Origin: Acaryochloris thomasi RCC1774
GTDB lineage: Bacteria > Cyanobacteriota > Cyanobacteriia > Thermosynechococcales > Thermosynechococcaceae
Reading direction: 5' to 3'
NCBI RefSeq assembly: GCF_003231495.1
Contig: NZ_PQWO01000021.1
Coordinates: 30,420-62,419 of the forward strand
DNA: 32,000 bases
Positions 207-31,322 of the stretch are shown here, piece after piece. The translations under genes and the position numbers were made by a program. How positions within the stretch are numbered: position 1 is the first letter of the stretch; each line of letters begins with the position of its first letter. The notes under the pieces were generated by a model that saw only the letters and a program-made list of their open reading frames with translations, searched no databases and had not been told where the DNA came from.

Positions 207-239
207 ACGCTAAGACCAACCAATGAGGAACTTGTGAGG
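207..239 (-). promoter_or_regulatory. Box A: CCTCACAAGTTCCTCA, 11-nt spacer, then TAGCGT (candidate promoter reading leftward)
   Basis: Reverse complement of 224-239 is CCTCACAAGTTCCTCA. Reverse complement of 207-212 is TAGCGT (TAnnnT), exactly 11 nt after the box. The box starts 8 nt after the stop of the cNMP gene. No convincing ORF lies in the remaining ~200 nt before the window edge. Confidence 0.55.
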
Positions 240-246
240 TTTGGAT

Positions 247-618
247 CTAGGAATCGTGCTTAAAGTGATACAGCCGATTAGAGTAGCTTCTCATCACTTC
301 GACTGCGAACATTGGGGTATTCTCAATTGCGAACAGAAAGTGGCGTTGGTCGAGAGAGGCGAGTTTACAGTCTGTCTTTGCGATCGCAGTAGATTGCCTT
401 TTATGGTCAACATGCACCAAAGCACCTGCGCCAAATATATCGCCACTGTCAATGGTTTCTAAGACGTTACCATCGACCAATATCTCAACTTTTCCCTCTA
501 GAATGCCGTACATCACCTTGCCCGTTTCTCCTTCAGAGAAAATCGTATCGCCTGCAGTAAAAGCCTGAGAATCAGGCTGTTTTTGCAGAATTTCGATAGT
601 CTCTACGGGCTTCAACAT
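247..618 (-). CDS. Cyclic nucleotide-binding domain protein (stand-alone cNMP domain, no DNA-binding domain)
   Basis: 123-aa ORF with the beta-roll pattern of CAP/PKA-type cNMP domains (FSEGETG...MYGILEGKVEI...GDIFGAGAL...RQSTAIA). GAGGAA lies 3 nt upstream of the ATG. Confidence 0.8.
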   Translation of the reverse strand: MLKPVETIEILQKQPDSQAFTAGDTIFSEGETGKVMYGILEGKVEILVDGNVLETIDSGDIFGAGALVHVDHKRQSTAIAKTDCKLASLDQRHFLFAIENTPMFAVEVMRSYSNRLYHFKHDS

Positions 619-1034
619 AGTTTCCTCGATTGAATGTCATTTCAATATCGATAGTACTGACCAACATAAGGGCAATGATCCAAGCTTTGAGTTAAGCATC
701 GGTTAAAGAATTTTCGCCTCAAGGTGATTCTCCCAGGGATCAATGCCCAAAAATTAGATATCCAAGCCAGTCAGAACAATCTCTTCATTGCGGGGCATTT
801 ATACGAATCAAGCTAAAACCAGGATCAAAAGAATGTTCGATCTGATTTTTTTGTGGGTGAGTTTCACCAGACAATGCATACGCTTACTAGTGCTGAAATC
901 CGAAGAAGCTGAGCGAGATGACTATTACTGCAGTGATCCCTTCATATGATCCTCAACTTTGACCGCTATTCTCTATTGTGAAAAGCGCTATTGATTGCCA
1001 CTTAATAAACCCAATTTAAGACCTGAGGTTCCCC

Positions 1035-1259
1035 ATGAATCATTGCCCGATTTGCTCAAATGACCTCCTGCGTCACATCGGCCATGGCCACATTTACTGG
1101 TTCTGTCCCCACTGTTGGCAAGAGACTCCCAATCTGGAGAGCTTTGAACCTAGGCAAGGGAAAATGCAAAGGTCTCAAACCGGCGATCGGCCATTGCGAT
1201 TGCTAGAGTCTCACCTCAGTCGCAAAGCAGAGGCCCTTATTGCCCTGTCTAGCCGTTGA
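1035..1259 (+). CDS. Small zinc-ribbon-like hypothetical protein
   Basis: 74-aa ORF with paired CxxC motifs (CPIC ... CPHC) near the N-terminus. No family assigned. Confidence 0.45.
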   Translation: MNHCPICSNDLLRHIGHGHIYWFCPHCWQETPNLESFEPRQGKMQRSQTGDRPLRLLESHLSRKAEALIALSSR

Positions 1260-1290
1260 ACATCTCATTCCAAAATTTACAGAGACATGA

Positions 1291-1545
1291 GTGATGATTC
1301 CCACTTACAAGCAACCCTTAACCAAAGAGTTTGAAGACCTCCGACAAGCTACAAACCATTTAGTTGATCAGCTTGCCCGTCGTGACGAAGCATGCGAGAG
1401 TACCACACCGACATCGCAAAGCAGATGGATACCTGCGATAGAGCATACAGAAAAGGATCCTGAACTGCTTTACAAGCTGATCAAAAAGTCAGGGTATTTT
1501 TGTACATTACGTCGTAGACAGCGCCATATTTTTCCCCAAGCCTAG
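1291..1545 (+). CDS. Hypothetical protein
   Basis: 84-aa ORF (GTG at 1291, ATG at 1294) with no recognisable motif. Supported only by its length and intergenic position. Confidence 0.3.
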   Translation: MMIPTYKQPLTKEFEDLRQATNHLVDQLARRDEACESTTPTSQSRWIPAIEHTEKDPELLYKLIKKSGYFCTLRRRQRHIFPQA

Positions 1546-1573
1546 CCTCAATATTTTGTGGAGGAAATCTCCC

Positions 1574-2668
1574 ATGCTCAACCGAAGATTGTTTGTCCAA
1601 ACAGCGGCAGCAACGACATCAGGGGCTGGGGTGGCCCAGTCCTACGCTGCTCCTGACCATAGTTATGAACAAGCGGTCAGCCAAATTTGGCGTCATATCA
1701 AACCAATCCCGACAGATGAAATGGCAATTCAGCACGAGTTGGTGCGTTATGCCACACTTGCGGCTTCTAGCCACAACACCCAATGCTGGCAATTTAAACT
1801 GGACGCTCAGTGCATTTCAATCCTGCCGGATCTTGAACGTCGCTGTCCTGCGGTTGATCCAGACGACCATCACCTCTATGCCAGCCTGGGCTGTGCCACA
1901 GAAAACCTCTTGCAAGCCGCCAACGCTTATGGGTTGCAGGGGACGGTTGAGGTCGCTATGGCTAACCAAATCTGCATCCAGATGGAACCGACTCAGCCTT
2001 CTGTATCATCTCTCTTTGAGGCTATTCCCCTGCGGCAATCGACGCGGACGGACTATGACGGTCAACCGCTCAAGAATGAGGAGCTAAAGCAGTTAGAACA
2101 AGTGGCTACTGGAGAGGGCGTCAATTTAATCCTGTTGACTGATCAGCCATCGAAGGAACAGGTTCTAGAGCATGTGATTGAGGGCAATACAGCCCAAATG
2201 AACGATCCGGCGTTTGTTGAAGAGCTGAAAGCCTGGATTCGGTTCAACGAGAAAGAAGCAGTGCGTAAGGGGGACGGACTTTTTGCCAAGTCCTCCGGGA
2301 ACCCGACCGCCCCGCATTGGCTAGGCAGCCTTATGTTTGATCGGTTTTTTACGCCCAAAGTTGAAAACGAAAAGTACACGAATCAAATTCGCAGTTCTGC
2401 TGGGATTGCCATCTTCGTCTCCGATGAGAATACGCCATCTCATTGGATTGAGTCGGGGCGATGCTATCAGCGCTTTGCCCTGCAGGCAACTGCACTAGGG
2501 ATTCGGACGGCGTTCTTGAATCAGCCGGTAGAAGTTGCGACTCTGCGGCCTCCGTTTGCCAGCTATCTTGGGATTGGAGATCGCCGTCCTGATTTAGTCA
2601 TCCGGTTTGGTCGTGGCCCAGAGATGCCGCGATCGCTCCGACGCCCTGTTGAGGCCGTCATAATTTGA
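1574..2668 (+). CDS. Nitroreductase-family (Acg-like) FMN oxidoreductase with twin-arginine (Tat) signal
   Basis: GGAGGA at 1560-1565 lies 8 nt before the ATG at 1574, so this start is preferred over the TTG at 1556. N-terminus is MLNRRLFVQTAAATTSGAGVAQSYA (RR motif, hydrophobic core, AxA-like site). SSHNTQCW resembles the nitroreductase-fold FMN motif. Confidence 0.8.
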   Translation: MLNRRLFVQTAAATTSGAGVAQSYAAPDHSYEQAVSQIWRHIKPIPTDEMAIQHELVRYATLAASSHNTQCWQFKLDAQCISILPDLERRCPAVDPDDHHLYASLGCATENLLQAANAYGLQGTVEVAMANQICIQMEPTQPSVSSLFEAIPLRQSTRTDYDGQPLKNEELKQLEQVATGEGVNLILLTDQPSKEQVLEHVIEGNTAQMNDPAFVEELKAWIRFNEKEAVRKGDGLFAKSSGNPTAPHWLGSLMFDRFFTPKVENEKYTNQIRSSAGIAIFVSDENTPSHWIESGRCYQRFALQATALGIRTAFLNQPVEVATLRPPFASYLGIGDRRPDLVIRFGRGPEMPRSLRRPVEAVII

Positions 2669-2710
2669 GCAAGGGTGGTGGTAAGACCTTTGGATGAGAT
2701 GAAACTACGA

Positions 2711-2989
2711 ATGAAAGCACTTCCCTTTGATGCGATCTCATACAAGAAAACCCCCGTCTTTACTCAGGCAACCATGCCGAAAGCACTCCTCGAACGTCAT
2801 TCCAGCAAAGCAGGCAGTTGGGGCAAGATTTGGGTTTTGTCAGGCCAACTTTGCTATCGGATCCTTACTGATCTGCCAGGGGACTATACGCTCACTCCAG
2901 ATTTACCGGGTATCATTGAACCCCAAGTTTTCCATCACGTTGAGCCGATGGGAGCCGTTGAATTTTATGTGGAATTCTACCGTACATAA
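2711..2989 (+). CDS. DUF1971 / YeaR-like (TehB N-terminal-like) protein
   Basis: MKALPFDAISYKKTPVFTQATMPKALLERHSSKAGSWGKIWVLSGQLCY aligns in pattern with E. coli YeaR (MLQIPQNY..TPFWNKQTAPAGIFERH). The start is uncertain: ATG 2711 fits the family N-terminus, and ATG 2699 and GTG 2675 are also in frame. Confidence 0.65.
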   Translation: MKALPFDAISYKKTPVFTQATMPKALLERHSSKAGSWGKIWVLSGQLCYRILTDLPGDYTLTPDLPGIIEPQVFHHVEPMGAVEFYVEFYRT

Positions 2990-3058
2990 GTTATGAACCC
3001 ACCATCCATCCTTGTCTATTTCGCAACTGAGAGGAGGGGCAGAGCTAGTGTTGAGCCG

Positions 3059-4117
3059 TTAGAGTCGCACCCAGTTCTTTAGGTAGGCATGTTCAAAAAT
3101 CATTTCCTTTTGAATTCTGAGGTCTTGACCAAAGCCTGCCTCTGAAGCCCGCTTGAACATCGCATAGGCAATAGCAATATCAGCATAAGCAAGACCGACT
3201 GCGTTGAAGTAGATCCGCTCGTCAGGGCTGCTGCGGCCCTTTTTCTCGCTGTTTACGATGTCCCCCAGATTGGCATAAATATCCCCATCGCTCAGTTCAC
3301 CGTCTTTGTACATTCGGCTCAGCGTCTGGGTGCGGTGTTTAACTGTTTCCCAATCATCGCAGACAATTTTGTCGCACAGTTTCGCCACCCCATATTCGTC
3401 CTCCCACCCTCCGACATGGCTGTAGAATGCGCCTGCTTTGACCCATGCCGCCTTCAGCAGCGGGGCTTGGGCACTGGTGGCCGTGACAATCACATCGGCT
3501 CCTTCAATAGCCGCTTGGAGATTCATGTGGGAAGCCACCATCTCGACATCCGGCAAAATGGGCGACATTTCCTGGATGAATTGCGTTTCTTCGTCTTCTG
3601 TCTTAGCGGCCACCTGACAGTGTTGGAGCGACGGCAGCGCTGTTTTCATGGCGACCAGATGCATTTTTGCCTGTTCGCCAGCTCCTATTAAGCCAATTAT
3701 CTTGGAGTCTTGGCGTGCTAGGTACTTGGCTGCGATCGCACCCATCGTTCCCACCCTCAGGTTCGAGCAGAGGGTACCCTCCATGAACGCAATGGGGAAG
3801 CCGTGCTCGATTTCAGACAGGATAATGACAGCAGAAAGATTTTGAATGCCGTGTTTTGCAGGATTTGGCGGGAACACTGAGACCCATTTCACCCCGCAGA
3901 TCTTGTGGTTCTTGAACGTGGCTGGGAGGCAATTGATCCGCTCTTGAGTATCATCATCAAAAATCTGAACGATTTTGTCGGGGAAAATCACGTCGCCGCG
4001 ATGGAATGCTTTGAGAGCGCTTTCTGTGGCCTGCATTGCCATTCGTACATCTAGGCAACCTGACGCTAGCAAATCTTCTTGGGAGAAGTACTGGCAATGA
4101 ATTTGATGACTGAGCAT
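3059..4117 (-). CDS. Ornithine cyclodeaminase / mu-crystallin family NAD(P)-dependent enzyme
   Basis: 352-aa ORF with the Rossmann motif GLIGAGEQAKMHL and family-typical length and layout. It is divergent from the oxidoreductase operon across a 232-bp intergenic region. Confidence 0.85.
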   Translation of the reverse strand: MLSHQIHCQYFSQEDLLASGCLDVRMAMQATESALKAFHRGDVIFPDKIVQIFDDDTQERINCLPATFKNHKICGVKWVSVFPPNPAKHGIQNLSAVIILSEIEHGFPIAFMEGTLCSNLRVGTMGAIAAKYLARQDSKIIGLIGAGEQAKMHLVAMKTALPSLQHCQVAAKTEDEETQFIQEMSPILPDVEMVASHMNLQAAIEGADVIVTATSAQAPLLKAAWVKAGAFYSHVGGWEDEYGVAKLCDKIVCDDWETVKHRTQTLSRMYKDGELSDGDIYANLGDIVNSEKKGRSSPDERIYFNAVGLAYADIAIAYAMFKRASEAGFGQDLRIQKEMIFEHAYLKNWVRL

Positions 4118-4349
4118 CTGGGGTTAACCTCTGCTGTTCGTTCACGTTGCGTAACGGTTAGAAATGCTGTGGCTCTTACGTTCATCCTAGAACCCGAAGG
4201 GTAGCGGTGGATACCGAACGTTTACGGATCGTTACTCGCGCAGTCCTGCAAAATTTCAATGGGGGAGGCGATGAGCGTTAGAGGGTATTTCGATTACAAT
4301 GCCATTGGTTTGCTGTTTATTGAAGTTGCAATTGCCCATTTAACCACCA

Positions 4350-4646
4350 ATGTTCAAGCGCCTTGCCCCCTCCAATCCTCAGACCGTCACCGTCAAGATT
4401 GAAGGTGAAGCAGTTCAGGTGCCGCTGGGTGAAACGGTCGCCGCCGCAGTCTTGGTTCACGATCTCGGCTATACCCGCACCCACCCAATCTCAGGCGCGC
4501 CCCGCGCCCCACTCTGCATGATGGGTGTGTGCTTTGAATGCCTAATGGAAATTGATGGATTGCCCAACCGTCAAACCTGTCAGATCCAGGTGGCAGAGGG
4601 CATGGATATTCGTCGTCAGCAGGGCGTCGGTGGCGACAATGCCTAA
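4350..4646 (+). CDS. Small (2Fe-2S)-binding subunit (HcnA / LhpF / OdhC-like)
   Basis: 98 aa with the cysteine cluster CMMGVCFECLMEIDG...TCQ, typical of the small Fe-S subunit of heteromeric flavin amine dehydrogenases. Its stop overlaps the next start by 8 nt (ATGCCTAA). Confidence 0.8.
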   Translation: MFKRLAPSNPQTVTVKIEGEAVQVPLGETVAAAVLVHDLGYTRTHPISGAPRAPLCMMGVCFECLMEIDGLPNRQTCQIQVAEGMDIRRQQGVGGDNA

Positions 4647-6039
4647 AATTCCGCTAGTGGTGATTGGTGCTGGACCAGGGGGGCTGTGTGCGGCAACTAC
4701 TGCAGCTCGGCTCGGCGTTCCTGTGGTTGTCCTAGACGAGCAACCTTCCCCCGGCGGACAAGTCTATCGGGCGATCGCCCAGGCTCCAGCAGAACGAGTC
4801 GCGATGTTGGGGGCCGATTACCAACGGGGAGCTGAGTTGGTGGCAGCGTTCAACGCCAGTGGCGCTGAATATTGGCCCCAGACCACTATTTGGTCTCTCA
4901 ACTCCAAGCGAGAGATTGGCATCCTGCGTCAGGGGCAGGCCCGCCTCATTGAAGCCGAGCAGGTGATTATTGCCAACGGGGCGATGGAGCGTCCCGTGCC
5001 GTTTCCGGGCTGGACCCTGCCGGGAGTTATGAATGCGGGAGCCGCTCAACTCTTGCTGAAAATGTCTGGCGTGGTGCCTGCGAATGGAACGGTGATTGCA
5101 GGCATCGGGCCGCTCCCCCTTCTGGTGGCGTGGCAGTACCTGCGGACTGGGGTTGCGATCAAAGCCGTTTTGGACCTTGCCCCTAGCCTCAATCTATGGC
5201 GGGCCGTGCCGCATTTACCCAGGGCACTGAGAGCGGGGGATTACCTCCATCGGGGCTTGAAATATACGCTGGACCTCCAAAGGGGAGGCGTGCCCATTTA
5301 CTATGGGGTATCTCACTTACGGGCTGAGGGGAACGACCGGGTTGAGGCTGTGACCTATGGTTGGAATCAGTTTGGGGTCCGGCGGAGCGAAACGCTGCCT
5401 ACAGAGAGCCTTTTGGTCCATTTTGGCGTGATTCCGAGGACCAATCTCACCCGCGCTGCTGGTTGTGAGCATCATTGGGATCGGGGACAACAGTGTTGGC
5501 GACCCCAGGTTGATCTGTGGGGTTATACCACTGTGCCGGGGCTTGCCATTGTCGGAGATAGTGCAGGCATTGGGGGCGCACGAAGCGCTGAGTATCGTGG
5601 ACGCTTGGCGGCTTTTGAAGCGGCTCGCTATTTACAGAGGATTAGTGTGCAACAGCGCGATCGCAAAGCTCAAAACGACCTCAAGGGGCTGCAAAGAGAC
5701 CTGCAAGTCCGGCCCTTCCTTGAAGCGCTGCATCGTCTACCGGAGTCCCTGCTCGTTCCCGCCGATGACGATACTCTGGTCTGCCGCTGTGAAGAAATTT
5801 CAGCAGGACAAATTCGCGCCGCCGTGCGAACCGGACATCTCGATCCCAATCAGGTGAAGTTTAACCTGCGCTGCGGCATGGGACCGTGTCAGGGACGGCA
5901 GTGTGCCCCAGCGGTGGCCCACCTTGTCGCTGCCGAACAACATCGCCCTGTGTCTGACTATCAGCCTTTCCGCGTCCGCCCCCCCATCAGACCCCTCAGT
6001 CTTGCCCAACTCGCAAGTTTGGAGCGTGCAGAACAATGA
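4639..6039 (+). CDS. FAD/NAD(P)-binding oxidoreductase subunit with BFD-like [2Fe-2S] domain (HcnB / LhpE / OdhA-like)
   Basis: The start is set at ATG 4639 (MPKIPLVVIGAGPGGL dinucleotide-binding motif) rather than 4552. The BFD-like Fe-S motif CRCEEISAGQIRAAV...CGMGPCQGRQC is near the C-terminus. Confidence 0.85.
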   Translation: MPKIPLVVIGAGPGGLCAATTAARLGVPVVVLDEQPSPGGQVYRAIAQAPAERVAMLGADYQRGAELVAAFNASGAEYWPQTTIWSLNSKREIGILRQGQARLIEAEQVIIANGAMERPVPFPGWTLPGVMNAGAAQLLLKMSGVVPANGTVIAGIGPLPLLVAWQYLRTGVAIKAVLDLAPSLNLWRAVPHLPRALRAGDYLHRGLKYTLDLQRGGVPIYYGVSHLRAEGNDRVEAVTYGWNQFGVRRSETLPTESLLVHFGVIPRTNLTRAAGCEHHWDRGQQCWRPQVDLWGYTTVPGLAIVGDSAGIGGARSAEYRGRLAAFEAARYLQRISVQQRDRKAQNDLKGLQRDLQVRPFLEALHRLPESLLVPADDDTLVCRCEEISAGQIRAAVRTGHLDPNQVKFNLRCGMGPCQGRQCAPAVAHLVAAEQHRPVSDYQPFRVRPPIRPLSLAQLASLERAEQ

Positions 6040-7157
6040 CGATGGACGCCATCATCATCGGGGGCGGACTAATCGGGTCTTCAACAGCACTCCACCTTGC
6101 ACTCAAGGGTCAGCGGGTCATGGTGATTGAGAAAGATAGCCCCGGTCGCCATGCCTCCGGGGTAAATGCCGGGGGATTACGTCGCCTCAATCGCCATCCG
6201 GCAGAAATTCCCTTGGCGGTGGCGGCTGCGGAAATGTGGCGAGAGATCCGGGCGTTGGTGGGGAGTGACTGTGATGTACAGCTCAGTGGTCAGGTCAAGG
6301 TGGCCGAAAATGAGGCCGATCTGCAGAAACTTGCGGATCGGGCAGCGCTGGTTCAGTCCTTGGGGTTTGCGCATGAGCAACTGATTGATCGCGATCGCCT
6401 TTACCAGTTGGTGCCTACTTTGGCCCCCCACTGTGTCGGAGGCCTCTACACGGAAGGGGATGGCTTTGCCCGTCCTTACCATGCCCTCACGGCGTTTCGT
6501 CACAAGGCGCAATCTCTAGGCGTCCAGTATCAAACAGGTTGCCGAGTGACCGGGTTTGATCTGGTGGGGGACTGTTGGCGAGTGGTCACAGAGCGATCGC
6601 AAACAGAGCCAGCCAACTTTGATGCTCCTGTGCTTGTGAACTGCGCCGGAGCCTGGGCCGAAAAACTTTGCACGGACTTAGGAGAACCCGTTCCTTTGAG
6701 GGTCGGTGCTCCCATGATGATGGTGACAGAGCGTTTGCCCCATTTCCTTGACCCAGTAGTGGGTGCAGCATCCCGCAAGCTGTCGTTTAAGCAAATGCAG
6801 AACGGCACGGTGTTAATTGGTGGTGCTCATCTCGCCGACCATGACTGGGAGCAAGAGACGACCGCCATTGATTTCACCAAGCTCAGTGAAAGCAGTCATA
6901 CAGCCCTGGACTTATTTCCCCGAATGGCTGATGTGAGAATTGTCAGAATCTGGGCAGGACTGGAGGCGTTTATGCCCGACCAGATTCCGGTCATTGGTCC
7001 CAGTGCCAAAGCCCCTAACGTTTATCATGCGTTTGGTTTCTCTGCCCACGGTTTCCAGTTATCGCCTGTTGTGGGGCGCATTCTGTCGGAACTGATTTTA
7101 GAGGATAAGAGTTCCCTTGCAATTGAACCCTTTTCGATTAAGCGGTTTCAGCCGTGA
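6036..7157 (+). CDS. FAD-dependent oxidoreductase, DAO family (HcnC / LhpB / OdhB / OoxB-like beta subunit)
   Basis: N-terminal IIIGGGLIGSSTALHLA motif. Length is 373 aa. There is a 4-nt ATGA start/stop overlap with the preceding gene. Confidence 0.85.
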   Translation: MTMDAIIIGGGLIGSSTALHLALKGQRVMVIEKDSPGRHASGVNAGGLRRLNRHPAEIPLAVAAAEMWREIRALVGSDCDVQLSGQVKVAENEADLQKLADRAALVQSLGFAHEQLIDRDRLYQLVPTLAPHCVGGLYTEGDGFARPYHALTAFRHKAQSLGVQYQTGCRVTGFDLVGDCWRVVTERSQTEPANFDAPVLVNCAGAWAEKLCTDLGEPVPLRVGAPMMMVTERLPHFLDPVVGAASRKLSFKQMQNGTVLIGGAHLADHDWEQETTAIDFTKLSESSHTALDLFPRMADVRIVRIWAGLEAFMPDQIPVIGPSAKAPNVYHAFGFSAHGFQLSPVVGRILSELILEDKSSLAIEPFSIKRFQP

Positions 7158-7201
7158 CCTTAGCATGCAGAGACTCAATCGTGAACGATAAAGTGCTTAC
7201 T

Positions 7202-8315: not shown

Positions 8316-8348
8316 ACTGTAAGTCAATATCTTGAGGAACAACTGAGG
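8316..8348 (-). promoter_or_regulatory. Box H: CCTCAGTTGTTCCTCA, 11-nt spacer, then TACAGT
   Basis: Reverse complement of 8333-8348 is CCTCAGTTGTTCCTCA, with both CCTCA pentamers intact and a divergent centre. Reverse complement of 8316-8321 is TACAGT at the canonical 11-nt spacing. It lies upstream of the 7844 gene and inside the doubtful 63-aa ORF 8290-8481. Confidence 0.5.
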
Positions 8349-8575
8349 AGCTAAGCAGGCTGAGAGTAGGCCCCAATGTAATGATCTTGATAGGTTTGCT
8401 TACGCTTTTCAATGCTGCAGAGTGCCTCACAGGTTCCTCAAGCTTCTGCTCTAGGTTGGAAATGAAAATGAGGGACTGCATTTCAACTTCATTCTTCCCA
8501 AAGGTGCATCAGGTTTTGACTCGTTTATAAGAGATAAAACCATGCGCCATTTACCCAACACATAGGAGAAACTGC

Positions 8576-14624: not shown

Positions 14625-14657
14625 CCTCACAAGTTTCACAAGTCTTTTTCCTATTCT
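14625..14657 (+). promoter_or_regulatory. Box G: CCTCACAAGTTTCACA, 11-nt spacer, then TATTCT
   Basis: This is the only copy on the plus strand, and it precedes plus-strand genes (the small TM ORF and the sigma factor). TATTCT at 14652-14657 has the same 11-nt spacing as the other boxes. Confidence 0.5.
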
Positions 14658-19204: not shown

Positions 19205-19237
19205 ATCTTAGAAAAGTTTGTTGAGGAACTTATGAGC
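19205..19237 (-). promoter_or_regulatory. Box E: GCTCATAAGTTCCTCA, 11-nt spacer, then TAAGAT
   Basis: Reverse complement of 19222-19237 is GCTCATAAGTTCCTCA. Reverse complement of 19205-19210 is TAAGAT. It lies 152 nt upstream of ATG 19053. Confidence 0.5.
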
Positions 19238-21786: not shown

Positions 21787-21819
21787 ACCTTAAGTTAGGA
21801 ACCTGAGGAAGTTGTGAGG
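21787..21819 (-). promoter_or_regulatory. Box B: CCTCACAACTTCCTCA, 11-nt spacer, then TAAGGT
   Basis: Reverse complement of 21804-21819 matches the consensus exactly. Reverse complement of 21787-21792 is TAAGGT. It lies 60 nt after the stop of ORF 21879-22220 and 326 nt before ATG 21461. Confidence 0.6.
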
Positions 21820-24028: not shown

Positions 24029-24061
24029 AGGCTAGCGAAAACTATTGAGGAAGTTGTGATG
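24029..24061 (-). promoter_or_regulatory. Box C: CATCACAACTTCCTCA, 11-nt spacer, then TAGCCT
   Basis: Reverse complement of 24046-24061 is CATCACAACTTCCTCA. Reverse complement of 24029-24034 is TAGCCT. It lies 41 nt upstream of ATG 23988 and 36 nt after the stop of the glycosyltransferase gene. Confidence 0.6.
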
Positions 24062-24096
24062 CTGCTGTTGCTAGAACGATGAAGGTGGGGTTGTGA

Positions 24097-24903
24097 TTAA
24101 GAGCCAATATTTCTGATGGCATCGGAGTTCTTCATTTCGATCCACTTACATCTGATGAGCTGTTGAATCGCCAGCCAGATAAACGGGGGAATGGTTGATG
24201 CATAGCGTCGCCAAAGCCTCCTGGGTTCCTGGCACAGTCGATAGGCCCATTCCAGACCCGAGGTGCGGACCCACTGGGGTGCGTGTTTGTGAATCCCTGC
24301 GTATACCGGAAAGACACCCCCAAGGCCAATCATGGTCGCGTTGATTTTGCCGCGATGCTGAGCAATCCACTGTTCTTGTTTGGGGCAGCCCAGAGAGACG
24401 AACAGCAGCCCCGCCTGAGTCTGATTGATCTGATTGGTTAGGTCTCGATCTTCTCTGGCAGTGAGCGATCGAAAGGGGAGTGGTTCCATCCCGGCGATCT
24501 GCAAAGCAGGGTATTCATTCTCTAGACGGCAGCGCATCTTAGCTAAAATTTGGGTCTGAGACCCCACACAGAAGATACTCACGTTTTGGCTCTGAGCTTC
24601 TTGACAGAGACCTGTAAAAAGATCCATCCCGGCGACTCGTTCTTGACCGTAAGCACCCAATAACCGCAGCATCCACACCAGCGGCATCCCGTCTGGCGTC
24701 ACTAAGTCAGCCGAACGCAAAATTTGCCTGAAGGTATTATTCCAGTGGGCTTCCATCAGCATATGGACGTTGGCAACGCAGACAGAGCGACTCATATTCT
24801 GCTTAGCCCAGCGAATGATCTGCTGGACGTGCTGATTGAGAGACAGCGCATGAATATCAATGTCAGTAACCGGAATGCGATGAGATGCTCTAAATGGAGT
24901 CAT
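24097..24903 (-). CDS. WecB/TagA/CpsF-family glycosyltransferase
   Basis: 268 aa with the family-typical VTPDGMPLVW and GLGCPKQEQW motifs. Confidence 0.85.
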   Translation of the reverse strand: MTPFRASHRIPVTDIDIHALSLNQHVQQIIRWAKQNMSRSVCVANVHMLMEAHWNNTFRQILRSADLVTPDGMPLVWMLRLLGAYGQERVAGMDLFTGLCQEAQSQNVSIFCVGSQTQILAKMRCRLENEYPALQIAGMEPLPFRSLTAREDRDLTNQINQTQAGLLFVSLGCPKQEQWIAQHRGKINATMIGLGGVFPVYAGIHKHAPQWVRTSGLEWAYRLCQEPRRLWRRYASTIPPFIWLAIQQLIRCKWIEMKNSDAIRNIGS

Positions 24904-25002
24904 AGTTTTTAGAGGAATTGTGGTTCAGAACCCCTTACATGCAGGAAGAGAGATGCTGTTGCAAGCATGGGTTGACTTGCAGAGACTCTAAGGCTAGAGG
25001 GC

Positions 25003-25266
25003 TTAGCGATTATTGAGATCGCGGCTTACCTTAGGTCTGGCCTTATTTACGGTGAGCGCACGTTCCATCAGCTCGATGCCGTTGAGGGCTTTGATTGCAG
25101 AATCTTCTTTAGCACGTTCCATTTCTACGAAGGCAAAGCCTCTAGAGCGACCGGTCTCTCGGTCTTGGGGAATATGAATACCTTTGATGGTTCCATAGTC
25201 TGAAAAGACGTTGTTGATATCTGTTGCAGTGGCCTTAAAAGAAAGGTTGCTGATGTAAATTGACAT
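25003..25266 (-). CDS. rbp: RRM-type RNA-binding protein (cyanobacterial Rbp, no Gly-rich tail)
   Basis: GGAGGA lies 7 nt upstream of ATG 25266. RNP2 is IYISNL and RNP1 is RGFAFVEM. The 87-aa form is chosen over the 120-aa ORF from 25365, whose extension overlaps the predicted box D promoter. Confidence 0.9.
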   Translation of the reverse strand: MSIYISNLSFKATATDINNVFSDYGTIKGIHIPQDRETGRSRGFAFVEMERAKEDSAIKALNGIELMERALTVNKARPKVSRDLNNR

Positions 25267-25351
25267 GGAGTATTCCTCCAAAATGAACGGTATTGCGGCC
25301 ATATGTCTGGCAGCGATAGAAATTTGGGCGATGCCTACTGTCTTTTCTAAG

Positions 25352-25384
25352 AGCCTATGGCTCACTCATGAGGAAGTTGTGAGG
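25352..25384 (-). promoter_or_regulatory. Box D: CCTCACAACTTCCTCA, 11-nt spacer, then TAGGCT
   Basis: Reverse complement of 25369-25384 matches the consensus exactly. Reverse complement of 25352-25357 is TAGGCT. It lies 86 nt upstream of the rbp ATG. Confidence 0.6.
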
Positions 25385-25583
25385 AAAGTGAGCGATGTCG
25401 TTGATTTCTTAGAATGCAAAGTCCAGGGGCATTAAAGCTCTTGTATATTTGGCATCAACATCCGTTTTGTTGAATTATTCGTCACCAATACTGGGAATAT
25501 ACAAGCGGAAAACGGGTATACAATTCAGGGGGAGCAATAACTGTCACGACTGACCTTGAAGGGGGCTGGCAGGTTGCCTAACG

Positions 25584-25598
25584 ATATTTACTAAATAT
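25584..25598. promoter_or_regulatory. Perfect 7-1-7 palindrome ATATTTA-C-TAAATAT, with a third ATATTTA copy at 25614-25620
   Basis: Seen directly in the sequence, about 100 nt upstream of the histidine kinase ATG (25700). It is a possible operator but it is AT-rich, so specificity is uncertain. Confidence 0.25.
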
Positions 25599-25699
25599 TT
25601 AGCGTAAAACCACATATTTAGACTTCTAGCCGTTCTTGGTTTCTTCACAACTGCCAATCATACTTTTAGGCTCCCGCTTTTCCTCACTGTTCGGTAATA

Positions 25700-28600
25700 A
25701 TGCAGCAAATCCTAACTGTCTCGTTAGAGCAGGCGCTTGACCGCTCTCCTCTAGTGGTTTCGCCTCATACACCGCTGGCAGACGTTATCGACCTAATGAG
25801 TCAGGCGTCGAGTCGTCATCAAACCCGAATCCAAGAAACGGTTGCTTCTGACCTTGAACCGATGACAGAGCGGCAGACCAGTTGTGCGCTCGTACTGGAC
25901 CATTCTCGACTGGTGGGCATTCTTACTGAACGAGATATTGTCAGACTGATTGCCGACTATAGATCGCTAGCAGATCTCACCGTTGCTGATGTGATGACGC
26001 GGGAGGTCTTTACCCTACAGCTTGCGGATGATCTGGATGTTTTTGCGGTTTTAGACCGAATGCGGCGGCATCAGATTCGGCATTTGCCGGTTGTGGATCA
26101 GCAAGGAGAGGTTCTGGGACTGCTGACGCCGAGAAGTTTACGGAATCTGCTGCAGCCTGCTGATGTCATGAGATTTCGGAAGGTTCATGAGGTGATGAAC
26201 TTAAATGTGATTCACGCTGTACCAACTTGCTCAGTGCATCAGATCACTCAAATGATGGTGCAGCATCGAGTAAGCTGCGTCGTGATTATAGAGTCAGAAG
26301 GATCGTCCGATTCACTTCGCCCAGTGGGAATCGTGACTGAGCGAGACATTGTTCAGTTCCAGCGACTGGGGCTGAATCTAGTGCAAACTCAGGCTGAGGA
26401 AGTCATGAGTACGCCCCTTTCTTTGGTGCGTCCAGAGGATTCTCTATGGACGGTGCATCAAATGATGCAGCATCACAGAGTCCGGCGGCTCGTGGTGGCG
26501 AATGAACAGGACATGTTGCAGGGGATCGTGACCCAGAGTAATCTGCTACCGATGGACCCGGCGGAGATGTATGAGATGCTAAATCTGCTTCAGCAACAGG
26601 TCTGTCAGTTAGAGATTCAAAACCGTGATCTGCTCCAACAACGAAATCAGGAATTAGAGCAGGTGGTTGAAGAGCGAACCGCTAAGCTGCAGCGTCGTGA
26701 ACAAATACTTAAGAGCTTGGCGCTGGAGGTGTCGGCAGACACGGGTGAAGACTTTTTGAGATCGCAACTCCCCCAGCTCACCGAAGCCCTGCAGGTCGAT
26801 TACGCCCACATCGGTCGGCTTTGCGATGACGGCAGCATTCAAACCCTTGCAGCGTTTGGTAATGGGCAAATTCAACCCAATTTTGAATACGCTTTAGCGG
26901 GGACACCCTGCGAGGATGTGATTACTCAAAAAGCCTGTATTCATCACCAGGGGGTACAAGCTCTGTTCCCCGACGATCCAATGCTTCGGGATGATCAAAT
27001 TGAAGGGTACTTCGGTACCCCGCTACTCAACACAGCGGGCCAGGTGATGGGACTCATTGTGGCGTTAAGCCGTCAGCCCCAGTCAGATTTGGACCTGATA
27101 GAGGAGGGACTGACAGCCTTTGCGATTTGGACTAGTGCTGAGCTAGAGCGCCAAGAGGCCGAAAGCGAACGTCAGCGCTTTTTCACATTGTCCTTAGATC
27201 TGCTTTGTGTGGCAGGTTTAGATGGCTATTTCAAACAGATAAACCCAGCCTTTGAGCGCATTTTGGGCTATTCAGACGCAGAACTGATGGCTGAGCCTTT
27301 TCTTGATTTTGTTCATCCTGACGATAGAGCAGCAACGCTACAGGAAATGGAACAGCTAGGGAGCGGTGTTGACACCATCGCCTTTGAGAATCGGTACCGC
27401 TGTCAAGACGGCTCCTATCGCTGGTTTCTTTGGAATACCACGCCTGATCTAGAACAGAAACTCCTCTATGCCACCGCCCGCGATATCACCGATCGCAAGC
27501 AGATGGAACAGTCACTAGTTCAGAAGGCTAAGCAACAGGCGACCGTGGCTAAATTGGGGCAGTTGGCCTTGGCTTCTAAAGATCTCGATCAGTTGATGGA
27601 CGAAGTGGTAGTTGAGATCGCATCCACTCTAGACGTTGAGTACTGCAAAGTTCTGAAACTTCTACCGGATGGAGAATCGATGCTCCTGAAGGCCGGTGTG
27701 GGCTGGCAAGCAGGGTTAGTAGGGCAGGCGGTGATCGGCACAGATGCAGACTCCCAAGCGGGCTACACGCTACGGAGTGACCATCCGGTGATTGTTGCAA
27801 ATCTGCAGACCGAAACCCGGTTTAGCGGTCCCCCTCTACTGATCAAACACAATGTGATCAGCGGCATGAGCGTGATTGTTCAAGGTCAGCACAAAATCTA
27901 CGGCGTGATCGGCGCTCACACAGTCAAGCACCGTCTCTTTAGTCAAAATGACATTGATTTCTTGCAGTCCGTGGCGAATTTGTTGTCTCAGACCCTTGAG
28001 CGGGTGCAAGCCGATCAGATTGTTCGGCAAAGTGAAGCAAACTATCGTACCCTGACCGAGAATCTGCCGGGGATCGTCTATCGGGTGTTTCCTGAAGAGC
28101 AACACGGGATGGTATTTCTCAACAATCAGTGTCAGACGCTGACGGGGTACAGCACTGAAGAATTATCGAGCGGTGAAGTTTGTTCCATCGATCCGCTGAT
28201 CGTGCCAGAAGATCGGCCCCATGTCATTGCCACCGTAAAAAAGGCAGTTGCTCATCAGATGCCGTTCTTGGTCGAGTACCGCATCAAGGATCGTGCTGAC
28301 AACATCCGCTATTTTTGGGAAAAGGGACAGCCGATCCCTGCGAGAGAGAGTCAGCCCCCTTACATTGATGGCGTCATTTTTGATGTGACAGAGCGAAAGC
28401 AGGCAGAACTGGCTCAACTCGAAAGCCAAGAGCGTCTCAATAGCATTCTTAGTTCTCTCCAGGATGCGATCTGGTCTATAGCGTCAGATACCTCTGAGGT
28501 GCTGTATCTCAGCCCTGCCGCCGAAACCATTTATGATCGTCCGAGGACTGAGTTTTATGAAACATCAAAACTTTGGGAGCAGGTGGTTCATCCTGAGGAT

Positions 28601-30298
28601 CGAGATCGATTCAAAGACTCTGATCAAGTCTTGCGAGAGACCGGCAGCGCTGAATGTGAGTATCGGATCGTTCGACCAGATGGGACGGTTCGCTGGCTCA
28701 GGGAAAGAGCCAAGGTGATCTATGACGCAGATGGGGGTCCAATACGGATGGATGGTGTGGTTACAGACATCACCGATCGCAAACAGGCCCAACTCCAGGT
28801 TCGAGAACAGGCTGCCCTTCTGGATGTTGCCACGGATGCCATTTTAGTTCGGTCCATGGACGACGAGATCAAGTTCTGGAATCAAGGTGCGACAAAAATT
28901 TACGGTTGGACTGAGGAAGAAGCCCTTGGACAAAATGCCAACCAATTGTTATATTCCGAGACTGTTGACGGAGAAGAATTGATTCAGGCTGATTTGCAGC
29001 GATTGGGTAGCTGGCAAGGCGAACGCAAACAAGTGACGAAAGTGGGTCAAGAGATCACCGTCATGAGTCGATGGACCCTCGTGCAAGACGATCAAGAAAA
29101 CCCCAGATTCATCCTGACCGTCAATACCGATATCACCACGCAAAAGCAGCTCGAAGCCCAGTTTTTGCGTGCCCAGCGTCTAGAGAGTATCGGCACCCTC
29201 GCCAGCGGTATTGCCCACGACCTCAACAATATTTTGACCCCTATCTATGGTGTGGCCCAACTTTTACCGCTGCTGCTGCCCAATGCCAGCGAGCAGATTC
29301 AGCATCAGTTTGAGATTATTCAAAAAAGCTCTAAGCGGGGCACCGATATTATTGAGCAGGTGCTCTCTTTTTCGAGAGGGGCTGAAGGCGATCGCACTGC
29401 CCTCAATGTCAAACATTTAATCTCAGAAATTAGAACTTTCGTCCACCGCACCTTCCCGAAGTCTCTAGAGATGTCGGTCAATATTGCGGACGAACTCTGG
29501 TCTGTTAAAGGGGATGCAACCCAGCTCTATCAGGTGTTGATGAATCTGTTTGTCAATGCCCGTGATGCGATGCCTGAGGGGGGCACTTTAACCGTAACGG
29601 CTCAGAATCTCAATATGGATCAGGCGTTGGCAACAGGCCATATTGAGGCTCAGGTCGGAGCCTACATTAAAGTCACCGTTGCTGATACAGGGATCGGCAT
29701 CCCCATCGAGCAGCAGGAACACATCTTCGAGCCATTTTTCTCGACTAAACAAGCGACGGGAGGGACAGGCTTGGGCCTCTCCACGGTCTACAGCATTATT
29801 CAAAGCCACGGTGGATTCATCACCGTGGACAGCAAGGTGAACAAAGGAACTCTATTCAGTGTGTATCTGCCTGCAATTGAAGCTGAAGAAGGGATTGAAG
29901 CAGAGGCAACGAACCTGCCGTCGGGGAAAGGGGAGCTGATTTTGGTGGTGGATGATGAGGCTCCGATTCGAGACGTGACTCGAAGTGTTTTAGAGCAGTA
30001 TAACTACCGGGCGTTGGTCGCGGCAGATGGGGTGGATGCGATCGCTCAGTATGCCGAACACAAAACAGAAATCAATGTTGTTCTGATGGATATGAACATG
30101 CCTGCTTTAGATGGGGCAACAACCATCCGCACGATGCAGAAAATCAATCCTCAACTTCGCGTCATTATTGTGAGTGGTTCGCCCATCGATGAACAGATCA
30201 CCGTATCCATTGGAGAGAGCATCAAAGGCTTGCTACAGAAACCATATTCCGCTGAAGCGCTGCTACAAACATTACAGGGTGTGCTAGAGGCCAAATGA
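25700..30298 (+). CDS. Multi-sensor hybrid histidine kinase: 4 CBS, coiled coil, GAF, PAS, GAF, 3 PAS, HisKA, HATPase_c, REC
   Basis: 1532 aa. The N-terminal CBS pairs carry HQIRHLPVVD and HRVRRLVVAN. PAS-end linkers recur (DITDRKQ, DVTERKQ, DITDRKQ, DITTQKQ). The H-box is SGIAHDLNNIL (His codon 1173 at 29216). N/G boxes include NLFVNARDAM and GGTGLGLS. The REC domain has VVDDE...VLMDMNMPALDG (Asp codon 1464 at 30089). Confidence 0.9.
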   Translation: MQQILTVSLEQALDRSPLVVSPHTPLADVIDLMSQASSRHQTRIQETVASDLEPMTERQTSCALVLDHSRLVGILTERDIVRLIADYRSLADLTVADVMTREVFTLQLADDLDVFAVLDRMRRHQIRHLPVVDQQGEVLGLLTPRSLRNLLQPADVMRFRKVHEVMNLNVIHAVPTCSVHQITQMMVQHRVSCVVIIESEGSSDSLRPVGIVTERDIVQFQRLGLNLVQTQAEEVMSTPLSLVRPEDSLWTVHQMMQHHRVRRLVVANEQDMLQGIVTQSNLLPMDPAEMYEMLNLLQQQVCQLEIQNRDLLQQRNQELEQVVEERTAKLQRREQILKSLALEVSADTGEDFLRSQLPQLTEALQVDYAHIGRLCDDGSIQTLAAFGNGQIQPNFEYALAGTPCEDVITQKACIHHQGVQALFPDDPMLRDDQIEGYFGTPLLNTAGQVMGLIVALSRQPQSDLDLIEEGLTAFAIWTSAELERQEAESERQRFFTLSLDLLCVAGLDGYFKQINPAFERILGYSDAELMAEPFLDFVHPDDRAATLQEMEQLGSGVDTIAFENRYRCQDGSYRWFLWNTTPDLEQKLLYATARDITDRKQMEQSLVQKAKQQATVAKLGQLALASKDLDQLMDEVVVEIASTLDVEYCKVLKLLPDGESMLLKAGVGWQAGLVGQAVIGTDADSQAGYTLRSDHPVIVANLQTETRFSGPPLLIKHNVISGMSVIVQGQHKIYGVIGAHTVKHRLFSQNDIDFLQSVANLLSQTLERVQADQIVRQSEANYRTLTENLPGIVYRVFPEEQHGMVFLNNQCQTLTGYSTEELSSGEVCSIDPLIVPEDRPHVIATVKKAVAHQMPFLVEYRIKDRADNIRYFWEKGQPIPARESQPPYIDGVIFDVTERKQAELAQLESQERLNSILSSLQDAIWSIASDTSEVLYLSPAAETIYDRPRTEFYETSKLWEQVVHPEDRDRFKDSDQVLRETGSAECEYRIVRPDGTVRWLRERAKVIYDADGGPIRMDGVVTDITDRKQAQLQVREQAALLDVATDAILVRSMDDEIKFWNQGATKIYGWTEEEALGQNANQLLYSETVDGEELIQADLQRLGSWQGERKQVTKVGQEITVMSRWTLVQDDQENPRFILTVNTDITTQKQLEAQFLRAQRLESIGTLASGIAHDLNNILTPIYGVAQLLPLLLPNASEQIQHQFEIIQKSSKRGTDIIEQVLSFSRGAEGDRTALNVKHLISEIRTFVHRTFPKSLEMSVNIADELWSVKGDATQLYQVLMNLFVNARDAMPEGGTLTVTAQNLNMDQALATGHIEAQVGAYIKVTVADTGIGIPIEQQEHIFEPFFSTKQATGGTGLGLSTVYSIIQSHGGFITVDSKVNKGTLFSVYLPAIEAEEGIEAEATNLPSGKGELILVVDDEAPIRDVTRSVLEQYNYRALVAADGVDAIAQYAEHKTEINVVLMDMNMPALDGATTIRTMQKINPQLRVIIVSGSPIDEQITVSIGESIKGLLQKPYSAEALLQTLQGVLEAK

Positions 30299-30514
30299 GT
30301 GCATTACTAACGAGGAACAGCAGTCAACCAACGAAAAACTCCAAACGATGGGCATAGAGATTCAAGCTTTTTTGTCTAAACCACACAGGGCTTAAACACA
30401 ATTCCATACTCTACAGAGCGTTCTCAATGGTACTCAATATCCTCCAAGATAGGGGGGGATGAGTTCCTTTTTTGGAGGATAAGTGCAAGGATATTATTTC
30501 TGCAAGCGGTCTAA

Positions 30515-31048
30515 TCAGTGAAGTCCCCAAGATCGCCAGCGGTGAGGCGTCCCTGTGTTCGCACTTTGACTACAAACCGCCAACGGTTGGCGATCAGCGC
30601 CCTGATATTGGGCACCGTCTAAATGAGTGTTCTCCATGCAAGCGCCCTCGAAATTGACGTTACATAAGTTGGAACCACTAAAATCTACGGCGTCAAGGTT
30701 TGTGCCACCGAGATCTGCTCCCTCTAGATCTGCACTGCGAAGATCAGCCTGCGTCAGATCAGCACCTACCAAAGAGGCACTCCGCAGATCAGCGCCAATT
30801 AAGTTGACATTCTGTAATTTGGCACCGCTCAAGTCTGCTCCTCTGAGATCAGTATTGGTCAAATTGGCTTGATTCAGGTTGGCTCGACTCAAATCGGCAC
30901 CGTTTAAATTGGCACCGCTCAAGTCTGCCTGACTCAAATTGATGCCGCTGAAGGCCAGAGATTCCAGGTTCATTCCATGCAATCTAATCCCAGAAAAATC
31001 TCGATAGCCTTGATTATAATCGTGCAATAGCTTTTGAATAATACTCAT
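30515..31048 (-). CDS. Pentapeptide-repeat protein
   Basis: Contains long tandem A(D/N)LxX repeats (ADLSGANLNGADLSRANLNQANLTNTDLRGADLSGAKL...). Length is 177 aa. Confidence 0.85.
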   Translation of the reverse strand: MSIIQKLLHDYNQGYRDFSGIRLHGMNLESLAFSGINLSQADLSGANLNGADLSRANLNQANLTNTDLRGADLSGAKLQNVNLIGADLRSASLVGADLTQADLRSADLEGADLGGTNLDAVDFSGSNLCNVNFEGACMENTHLDGAQYQGADRQPLAVCSQSANTGTPHRWRSWGLH

Positions 31049-31289
31049 CGTTTTCTCCTGTTACTTACCTTATTAATCTCGTTCTAGCCAATCAAAGATT
31101 AGGGTCAACTGCTCTAAGGTCACTAATCCGTTGAGCTACAGCGAGACTAATAAGGGGTCATAGTTTCGCTGACTTGATTTGGCTGCAACTGTAATGACAG
31201 TGGGCGAGAAATTTAAATCATTTTGCAGAAAGTGATGAAACTGAGGATGGTTTACAAATATCACTGGCCCAGACTGCACTAAGACTTTC

Positions 31290-31322
31290 CTTTTAGCAAA
31301 TAAATTTGTGGAACTTGTGAGG
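31290..31322 (-). promoter_or_regulatory. Box F: CCTCACAAGTTCCACA, 11-nt spacer, then TAAAAG (imperfect -10-like hexamer)
   Basis: Reverse complement of 31307-31322 is CCTCACAAGTTCCACA. The hexamer at the canonical spacing is TAAAAG, which lacks the final T. It lies 242 nt upstream of the pentapeptide gene ATG, inside the doubtful 119-aa ORF. Confidence 0.4.

Follow-up and report, generated by a model that had tools for sequence, protein, structure and literature searches.

Why should one 16-bp sequence, followed at a fixed distance by a TA-containing hexamer, stand in front of one gene after another in a single stretch of cyanobacterial DNA? The stretch in question is 32,000 nucleotides of Acaryochloris thomasi RCC1774 (contig NZ_PQWO01000021.1, positions 30,420 to 62,419), which we refer to as the window, and the sequence is CCTCACAAsTTCCTCA, which we refer to as the box. 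We find that the box is genuine: it occurs far more often than chance would allow, and it is deeply conserved. On the logic of its sequence context, we consider it probable that the box forms the upstream element of an activator-dependent, class II promoter of pho-box-like layout, lacking a -35 element and conserved across cyanobacteria. As far as our literature searches reach, the box has not been described before.

Box sites in the window

We searched the window with the pattern CCTCACAASTTCCTCA, allowing up to three mismatches, and used 100 dinucleotide-preserving shuffles as the null. The window contained 10 matches against an expectation of 0.55, with a shuffle maximum of 3, such that 0/100 shuffles reached 10. 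A position weight matrix (PWM) built from sites that had not been used as search seeds gave 11 promoter-like sites with scores of 20-43; the highest score produced by 100 Markov shuffles of the window was 18.9. All 11 of these sites are intergenic and have a start codon on the same strand 40-325 nt downstream.

The original prediction had listed eight 16-mers, and their coordinates and strands were as claimed, with the claimed hexamer following after exactly 11 nt in 8/8 cases. Counting from box to hexamer, site A lies at 207..239(-), with the box CCTCACAAGTTCCTCA, the hexamer TAGCGT and a PWM score of 32.9; its predicted start is near 200 and its downstream gene extends beyond the window edge. 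Site H lies at 8316..8348(-) (CCTCAGTTGTTCCTCA, TACAGT, score 25.4), site G at 14625..14657(+) (CCTCACAAGTTTCACA, TATTCT, score 43.1), site E at 19205..19237(-) (GCTCATAAGTTCCTCA, TAAGAT, score 34.2) and site B at 21787..21819(-) (CCTCACAACTTCCTCA, TAAGGT, score 37.0). These are followed by site C at 24029..24061(-) (CATCACAACTTCCTCA, TAGCCT, score 26.3), site D at 25352..25384(-) (again CCTCACAACTTCCTCA, with TAGGCT, score 35.9) and site F at 31290..31322(-) (CCTCACAAGTTCCACA, TAAAAG, score 34.1). Although all eight are real, eight was an undercount, as three further sites with the same 11-nt spacing had been missed. One, at 8425..8457(+) (box 8425-8440, CCTCACAGGTTCCTCA, TAGGTT), is divergent to site H, has a single mismatch and scores 42.9. 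Another, at 940..972(+) (box 940-955, CTTCATATGATCCTCA, TATTCT, score 21.7), was found by the weight matrix only. The third, a weak divergent site at 31337..31369(+) (box 31337-31352, CGTCACAGGTCTCACA, CAGGTT), scores 20.4, just over the null maximum of 18.9, and is doubtful because a transposase fragment follows it. This fragment, of the IS4/IS5 family (DUF4096), occupies 31616-31888(+) and adjoins the weak site.

One string match, at 26395-26410(-), fell outside this set. It has three mismatches and lies antisense within a hybrid kinase gene, with no TA at +11 (a TAGATT is found at spacer 14), and it falls below the weight-matrix listing threshold of 10. It is most likely a chance match, and conceivably an antisense promoter.

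Divergent pairs of boxes within one intergenic region are frequent, both in the window (8333-8440 and 31307-31352) and among the loci fetched from other genomes (L018, L047, L105 and L129:7331-7394). The gap between the 5' ends of paired boxes varies from 14 to about 190 bp, and the two promoters of a pair therefore seem to be independent of each other rather than one composite site.

Anatomy of the box and its coupling to the hexamer

Loci from other genomes were fetched with the exact 16-mer, and so conservation within the box is judged only from 39 non-seed sites together with the sites of the window. The full consensus is tT-CCTCACAAsTTCCTCA-AATTnTnnnnc-TAnnnT. The element consists of two 11-bp direct repeats, CCTCAcAAsTT and CCTCAaATTnT, of which the second ends 6 bp before the -10 hexamer; the TCA at box positions 3-5 recurs 11 bp further on, at positions 14-16. 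In non-seed sites positions 1 and 2 (CC), 10 and 12 vary, and TCACAA, TT and CTCA are almost fixed. Because TCACAAsTT is near-fixed in independent sites, the middle of the box is conserved as much as the two CCTCA 'pentamers' by which the element had been described in the original prediction. The 11-bp direct repeat in that description stands, but the emphasis on pentamers was overstated, since the middle is equally conserved and conservation runs on as AATTnT. Outside the 16-mer, the box tends to be preceded by TT and is continued by AATTnT, and C/T precedes the hexamer. Downstream of the hexamer, an A-rich conserved stretch extends as far as the expected start of transcription, with a purine at the expected start position.

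The spacing between box and hexamer is rigid. Among the genome matches listed, TAnnnT was present at spacer 11 in 73/123 sites and in at most 7 at any other spacing from 5 to 19. When only the intergenic cyanobacterial boxes listed are considered, 70/102 have TAnnnT at +11, and 21 of the remaining 32 have TA at the same position, mostly within TATAAC or TATAAA, so that about 89% of these boxes have an in-register element resembling a -10. Non-seed sites with one mismatch in the flanks of the fetched loci behaved in the same way, with the hexamer at +11 in 23/29 and a total of 0-4 at control spacings. For half-boxes, spacer 11 was not favoured (6, versus 2-6 elsewhere), whereas for full boxes the corresponding numbers were 101 versus 1-4. 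Both halves of the box thus appear to be required for coupling to the -10.

A scan of the window for the consensus TTGACA-17-TATAAT gave chance numbers only, and none of the matches was at a box. The sequence 17 nt upstream of box-linked hexamers is ACAAsT, which is not TTGACA-like, and just upstream of the -10 there is C/T instead of TG. The -10 hexamer itself is of the ordinary group-1/2 sigma type. The proposal of a promoter class in which the box replaces the -35 at a fixed distance is therefore borne out by an 11-nt coupling in about 100 independent cyanobacterial sites, and the promoter reading agrees with the intergenic position of the boxes, their sense orientation toward a nearby start codon, their recurrence before the same gene families in distant taxa and the lack of a -35 partner.

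Distribution across cyanobacteria

We scanned one genome per prokaryotic species, amounting to 596 billion bases, for the exact 16-mer and obtained at least 120 loci. Among the matches listed, 103/120 loci are cyanobacterial, and the taxa represented include Nostocales, Chlorogloeopsis/Fischerella, Leptolyngbyaceae, Phormidesmis, Chamaesiphon and Pleurocapsales, as well as Acaryochloris, Thermosynechococcaceae, Pseudanabaenales, Coleofasciculaceae and others. The chance expectation for a 16-mer with one two-fold position in 596 billion bases is a few hundred matches. The 17 non-cyanobacterial matches listed are consistent with chance: 15/17 are in coding DNA and 0/17 have the hexamer. Of the cyanobacterial boxes listed, 102/107 are intergenic, even though 74% of that DNA lies under open reading frames (ORFs) of at least 120 amino acids (aa). 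In these loci the boxes are near-exclusively intergenic, and not as frequent in coding DNA. A search of 2.9 million viral contigs gave 7 matches, which is the chance level and thus indicates no link to phages. The density of non-seed sites in the other cyanobacterial loci is about one per 14 kb, a figure biased upward by clustering because the loci were ascertained by the exact 16-mer.

Genes downstream of the box

We took a census of the genes that the box may control by calling, mechanically, the first ORF downstream of 140 sites with a PWM score of 20 or more, all within cyanobacterial loci fetched by the motif, and scanning these ORFs against Pfam. In the listed loci the most frequent families among the 140 were universal stress protein (Usp, 12), the PEP synthase/PPDK N-domain (PPDK_N, 8) and pyruvate:ferredoxin oxidoreductase (PFOR, 7), followed by DUF4327, Hsp20 and BLH-phosphatase/TIGR01244-like proteins (5 each), pentapeptide-repeat proteins and an NrdG-like radical-SAM activase (4 each), FeoB and HlyD (3 each), and PFL-like glycyl-radical enzyme, phosphofructokinase, HoxE-type ferredoxin and CBS-pair proteins (2 each). 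Among the box-driven genes seen once each were those for DnaK, a protoglobin, the HoxW protease and an AMP-forming ligase, as well as one whose product resembles the AOC03_06830-type ribosome hibernation factor (at E = 2.5e-50 it does not reach the cut-off of that family). The commonest product behind an exact box in the listed loci is a CPxC...CxxC zinc-ribbon protein of about 80 aa, MNYCPCCS..LL.HIR....YWFCR.CWQEMP, found in L007:2826-3068(-), L017, L064, L077, L082, L083 and L089; this protein had no Pfam or NCBIfam match. An exact box also stands directly before a PTOX orthologue of Aliinostoc (L090, 73% identical to that of the window), and pentapeptide proteins lie behind boxes in four other loci (L040, L057, L081 and L106).

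The suggestion that the sites of the window might define a regulon accordingly extends to distant genomes, in which Usp, Hsp20, PFOR, PPDK_N, phosphofructokinase, pentapeptide, PTOX and NrdG-like genes are box-driven. This gene content covers fermentation, glycogen breakdown, anaerobic-type enzymes, ferrous iron uptake, chaperones and Usp, and it also includes a SigB-like sigma factor, an RNA-binding protein and the protein resembling a hibernation factor. The signal that it suggests would be low energy or low oxygen, as at night or under anoxia, together with general stress.

A candidate regulator and sensor kinase

The ORFs of the motif-fetched loci were searched with PhoB. Beside boxes in three of these loci (L035, L085 and L105) we found orthologous large regulators of about 650 aa, composed of a receiver, an OmpR-type winged helix, an HPt domain and a second receiver (REC-wHTH-HPt-REC), with GGDEF or PAS-kinase modules attached in some versions of the family. 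A search by protein identity added four members of the L085 type (L133-L136). In 4/4 of these the regulator gene is divergent to an Hsp20 gene and a box lies between the two genes, some 100 bp from the regulator start codon; in two of them a CBS-PAS hybrid kinase follows. Taken as a whole, the L085-type group (L085 and L133-L136) has a box in the divergent upstream region in 5/5 loci. The divergent box-driven partner is an unknown 127-aa protein in L085 and Usp in L105, while in A. marina, on plasmid pREB4, it is DUF4278, with the box 186 bp upstream of the response regulator AM1_RS34120. As a control, 348 kb around generic OmpR-type regulators of other phyla contained 0 boxes, these regulators having been taken from a metagenome scan with the regulator alignment that returned mostly generic OmpR-type proteins of other phyla.

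In 8/8 aligned members, drawn from both paralogue groups of the family, the segment RVFSC..IL.H.W...P.E.A.RTHIKGLR.KL does not vary. It includes the recognition helix, and such invariance would fit a single invariant DNA target. From the synteny, we put forward the REC-wHTH-HPt-REC family as the candidate regulator of the box, tentatively and with somewhat more doubt than trust. In L133-L136, at about 3900-4000, the stretch between the box and the regulator start codon also contains the conserved strings ATCTGTAAC and TGTGTCACGATC, which may be the regulator's own promoter or leader.

Within the window, a gene at 25700..30298(+) encodes a hybrid kinase that by its domain content reads CBS-PAS-GAF-PAS-HisKA-HATPase-REC and that is divergent from site D. 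Its A. marina counterpart is divergent from the box-driven glgP, and CBS-PAS hybrid kinases adjoin the box-driven Hsp20 genes and the candidate regulator. It is plausible, from these positions, that the kinase at 25700-30298 would be the sensor of the pathway.

The box as a probable activator-dependent promoter

We read the box as a class II activator site because it is a bipartite direct repeat, rigidly phased to a -10, without a -35 and with both halves needed, and because it is sense-oriented and conserved before the same functions in distant lineages. If transcription starts about 7 nt after the hexamer, the box would span about -39 to -24. An activator would occupy both repeats in a head-to-tail arrangement along the same face of the helix, overlapping the -35 position, and once bound would recruit a polymerase whose sigma factor belongs to group 1 or group 2. 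The box sites would then mark a phylum-wide regulon for low energy, low oxygen and stress, with the ~650-aa REC-wHTH-HPt-REC response regulators, encoded beside box-driven genes and CBS/PAS hybrid kinases, as candidates for the activator. In this scheme protein binding, activation in preference to repression, the identity of the regulator and the inducing signal are what we infer.

Several points weigh against this account. The promoter status of the sites is argued from sequence logic, and a box that overlaps the -35 could equally be the operator of a repressor. Synechocystis hspA was reportedly transcribed best in vitro by SigB-polymerase with no activator added (PMC2758279), which leaves room for a reading based on the sigma factor. 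As regards the candidate regulator, the second paralogue group has a box nearby in only about 3/5 loci, with two loci having none within 4 kb and one having a box 1.5 kb away, and more distant relatives of the regulator had no box. Moreover, the hspA box is also present where no regulator is adjacent, and so the 5/5 association may be a by-product of hspA synteny.

Alternative explanations

Could the box be the site of a regulator that already has a name, such as OrrA, RpaA, RpaB, Rre1, NrrA, RppA or NtcA? NrrA reportedly recognises TG(T/A)CA-N8-TG(T/A)CA, and this site is unlike the box. RpaA was our first guess because the genes are of dusk type, and was rejected as the matches to its published matrix are AT-rich: they take the form TTTAAnnTTTTCTTTAnATT (PMC10805033 Table S1), and the best matches in Anabaena are likewise AT-rich, e.g. 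AATATTTAAGATTTTCTTTAGATTT. The sites of RpaB (HLR1, KTTACAWW-N2-KTTACAWW; PMC13421787), Rre1 (GTNCGGK; PMC13421787), RppA (AAMAWCTCYYWCCCC; PMC13421787) and NtcA (GTAN8TAC; PMC3898017) are neither contained in the box consensus nor alignable to it, and the earlier statement that the box matches neither the NtcA nor the HLR1/RpaB consensus was correct. Slr1588/Rre39 was rejected as the regulator because it is a receiver-EAL protein. OrrA is the named regulator most worth testing. In Anabaena, some 400 genes induced by salt, dehydration or cold, avaK among them, are under OrrA control (PMC9804601), and an AvaK-like (PRC-barrel) gene is box-driven on A. marina pREB4; histidine kinase genes adjoin orrA in some Nostoc strains, as they do the candidate regulator. 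What may speak against OrrA is its published description as a simple receiver-HTH protein (PMC12157317). The OrrA literature, in so far as its text is accessible, yielded no binding motif. Overall, we think it rather unlikely that one of these regulators accounts for the box.

A second possibility is that a group-2 sigma factor of the SigB type reads the box directly, as a -35-like element, with no separate activator. One box in the window drives a group-2 sigma gene, making autoregulation possible, and SigB of Synechocystis is itself autoregulated, responds to heat, dark, salt and osmotic conditions and is the most effective sigma factor for hspA transcription in vitro (PMC2758279). Promoters dependent on SigE may be comparable, since they are described as combining a C-rich degenerate TANNNT with a non-canonical '-35G' (GNC/TNNN) inside a 16-nt specificity region (bioRxiv 10.1101/2021.12.09.472044). 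The hexamers of the window are G/C-rich in NNN and in this may resemble the SigE-type -10. However, the geometry does not fit sigma region 4: CCTCA ends 11 nt (proximal copy) and 22 nt (distal copy) before the -10, and ACAAsT is what stands 17 nt upstream. An element of at least 16-20 bp of which both halves are needed looks like the target of a dimeric DNA-binding protein, not a 6-bp -35, and the -10 is of the ordinary group-1/2 type. In addition, the sigma factor of the window is specific to Acaryochloris (at most 56% identity outside the genus) whereas the box is phylum-wide. We consider direct reading by a sigma factor unlikely. The box might instead be the operator of a repressor that covers the -35 and silences the genes until a stress or dark signal arrives. 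It does overlap the polymerase contact zone, the targets should be shut off while cells grow in the light, and there is a precedent in RpaB, an OmpR-type regulator that represses from sites overlapping the core promoter (PMC13421787). Yet a strong promoter that is merely derepressed needs a -35 or an extended -10, and box promoters have neither; furthermore, rigid 11-nt phasing in about 90% of sites is what contacts between activator and polymerase would produce, while steric repression tolerates variable placement. We therefore hold repression to be quite improbable. The reading furthest from ours, that the box acts in RNA (in a 3'-untranslated region or in processing) or is a dispersed repeat such as a miniature inverted-repeat transposable element (MITE), starts from the observation, made in the original prediction and upheld here, that several boxes lie shortly after a co-directional stop codon (at 8-67 nt), such that read-through transcripts would contain them. 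But there is no conserved secondary structure, the flanks are unrelated, and Rfam and tRNA scans of the window gave no matches. The conserved partner of the box is a DNA-type -10 hexamer at a fixed downstream distance, divergent pairs occur at variable distances within one intergenic region, and sites stand upstream of orthologous genes regardless of the upstream neighbour. As for a repeat, terminal inverted repeats and target duplications are absent, the sites are sense-oriented upstream of genes, and the viral contigs held only their 7 chance-level matches, so that the earlier exclusion of a MITE or dispersed repeat holds. This last explanation is extremely unlikely.

Comparison with known systems

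Returning to the activator-dependent promoter as the preferred reading, the closest likeness in layout is with PhoB. The pho box of E. coli consists of direct repeats with a period of ~11 bp that end about 10-11 bp upstream of the -10 and stand in place of a -35, and there too the sigma factor is of the housekeeping type, although the sequence and the regulon here are different. The domain order of the candidate regulator, REC-wHTH-HPt-REC, is presumably that of RcaC, whose L box in the chromatic acclimation of Fremyella is also a direct repeat with an 11-bp period, TTGTTA-N5-TTGTTA. The box is unrelated to the L box in sequence, however, and the targets here are stress and fermentation genes rather than the phycobilisome genes of RcaC; the candidate family is also far more widespread, and includes some GGDEF or kinase fusions.

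In gene content, the resemblance is to the DosR (DevR) regulon of M. tuberculosis, whose members include hspX, several usp, the acg/Rv3131 nitroreductases, pfkB, Rv2626c (CBS), Rv2629, ctpF and nrdZ. The box-driven set similarly contains an alpha-crystallin Hsp20, several Usp, an Acg-family nitroreductase, phosphofructokinase, a CBS-pair protein, the AOC03_06830-type hibernation-factor-like protein, a Ca-type P-type ATPase and components of anaerobic ribonucleotide reductase, with multi-sensor GAF/PAS kinases nearby. DosR, though, is a NarL-type regulator that binds a 20-bp palindrome, whereas the site here is built of direct repeats and the candidate regulator next to it is of the OmpR type. 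The resemblance is one of function (gene content) and not of shared family. A fuller proposal would make the box the operator of a new, phylum-wide dormancy regulon for low energy and hypoxia, the counterpart of that of DosR, in which multi-input REC-wHTH-HPt-REC regulators with one invariant recognition helix are served by CBS/PAS/GAF hybrid kinases sensing energy or redox state; as a whole we regard this as possible but doubtful.

Among cyanobacterial systems, the SigB/Hik34-Hik2-Rre1 circuit of Synechocystis and S. elongatus shares with the box both its targets (hspA, dnaK and a SigB-like sigma factor) and its conditions (dark, heat, salt and osmotic; PMC2758279; PMC13421787). It differs in that GTNCGGK is absent from the box, Rre1 is of the NarL/LuxR type and the described Rre1 regulon is without fermentation genes. 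RpaA and RpaB resemble the candidate in being pan-cyanobacterial OmpR-type regulators with direct-repeat sites, and glgP and sigma factors are among the dusk genes under RpaA control (PMC13421787), but their AT-rich (RpaA) or KTTACAWW-repeat (RpaB) motifs are unlike CCTCACAAsTTCCTCA. For nifJ, hox and glgP, the only regulators named in a 2026 review (PMC13421787) are the nucleoid protein cyAbrB2, SigE and RpaA, and for the wider set of fermentative and survival genes it adds just a few others; none of them has the box motif. Searching about 8 million full texts for the box, its reverse complement and N-gapped spellings returned only primers and unrelated sequences, although a logo present only in a figure would escape such a search. 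The literature on RpaA, NrrA, SigE, DAP-seq, OrrA, Slr1588 and nifJ/hspA/pfkA gave no description of the box motif, and the box was not present in the supplements of a Nodularia transcriptome paper and a JBC 2025 paper on nutrient limitation.

Box-linked genes of the window and the Acaryochloris island

The window forms a dense island of boxes. Its 32 kb hold 11 sites, compared with roughly one non-seed site per 14 kb in the loci from other cyanobacteria. The 940 site precedes two small ORFs (1035-1259 and 1291-1545) and then an Acg-family FMN oxidoreductase, a nitroreductase, at 1556-2668, all on the (+) strand; the family assignment rests on NF047509 (306 bits against a cut-off of 199). Site H faces a 141-aa ORF without a family at 7844-8269(-), and the divergent 8425 site faces the plastoquinol terminal oxidase PTOX (8576-9241), DUF6544 (9361-10245) and a Ca-type P-type ATPase (10328-13066), all (+). 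Behind site G are a small ORF (14712-14936) and the group-2 sigma factor (14989-15888), both (+). The latter matches SigA2 of Acaryochloris thomasi RCC1774 at 100% identity and is a paralogue specific to Acaryochloris. Site E is followed by a secreted 168-aa protein (18547-19053) and then by glgP, encoding glycogen phosphorylase (15910-18522), both (-), and site B by a CopD-like membrane protein at 21015-21461(-). Downstream of site C are a coiled-coil protein (23488-23988), an MreB-like protein (22259-23362) and an ORF at 21879-22220, all (-). Site D precedes an RRM-type RNA-binding protein (Rbp) at 25003-25269(-), and site F a pentapeptide-repeat protein at 30515-31048(-).

Two further observations concern the gene content of the window. 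The MreB-like actin homologue (NF010539, 380 bits) and its coiled-coil neighbour, at 22259-23988(-), place a second MreB-type cytoskeletal gene behind a box promoter, and such a gene, read as stress-regulated, is unusual. A box-free cluster at 3059-7157 encodes an ornithine-cyclodeaminase-family protein and two subunits of FAD-dependent oxidases (sarcosine/opine-oxidase-like), and has a locally raised G+C content (0.57 at 4001-6000).

The island comprises 940-13066 and 14625-31322 of the window, and in A. marina it is represented by L129 and L140, both from pREB4. In A. marina MBIC11017 a syntenic island is located on this plasmid with at least 9 degenerate boxes, found upstream of Usp, DUF1830, the AvaK-like PRC-barrel gene with groES-groEL, an alcohol dehydrogenase, the small ORF and sigma operon, glgP (which has its own box), a nitroreductase next to usp and hoxE, and DUF4278. 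Because the syntenic island is on a plasmid, the core of the regulon may be mobile within the genus Acaryochloris. The region upstream of the sigma operon can be aligned between three Acaryochloris genomes (62-66% protein identity), and in this alignment the box, the spacer pattern and the -10 form a conserved block while the upstream flank is unrelated. Phylogenetic footprinting, which had been suggested as a check, thus finds the box and -10 kept upstream of the orthologous sigma operon in two other Acaryochloris genomes.

Implications

In kind, the box would belong to an ordinary class of activator-dependent promoters; what makes it interesting is how widespread and how nearly invariant it is, together with the biology that it organises. 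As for the factor that switches on hox, nifJ/PFOR, pfk, glgP, hspA and usp in cyanobacteria in darkness, anoxia or stress, the box points to a specific candidate family of regulators and to candidate sensor kinases. With its nearly constant 16 bp and its rigid geometry, an element found from Nostocales to Acaryochloris and Thermosynechococcaceae makes it possible to predict the members of the regulon genome by genome. For cyanobacterial engineering, the box offers a compact, portable and probably stress- or dark-inducible promoter. In Acaryochloris itself, the box-driven genes are gathered into a dense island that, in A. marina, is borne on a plasmid.

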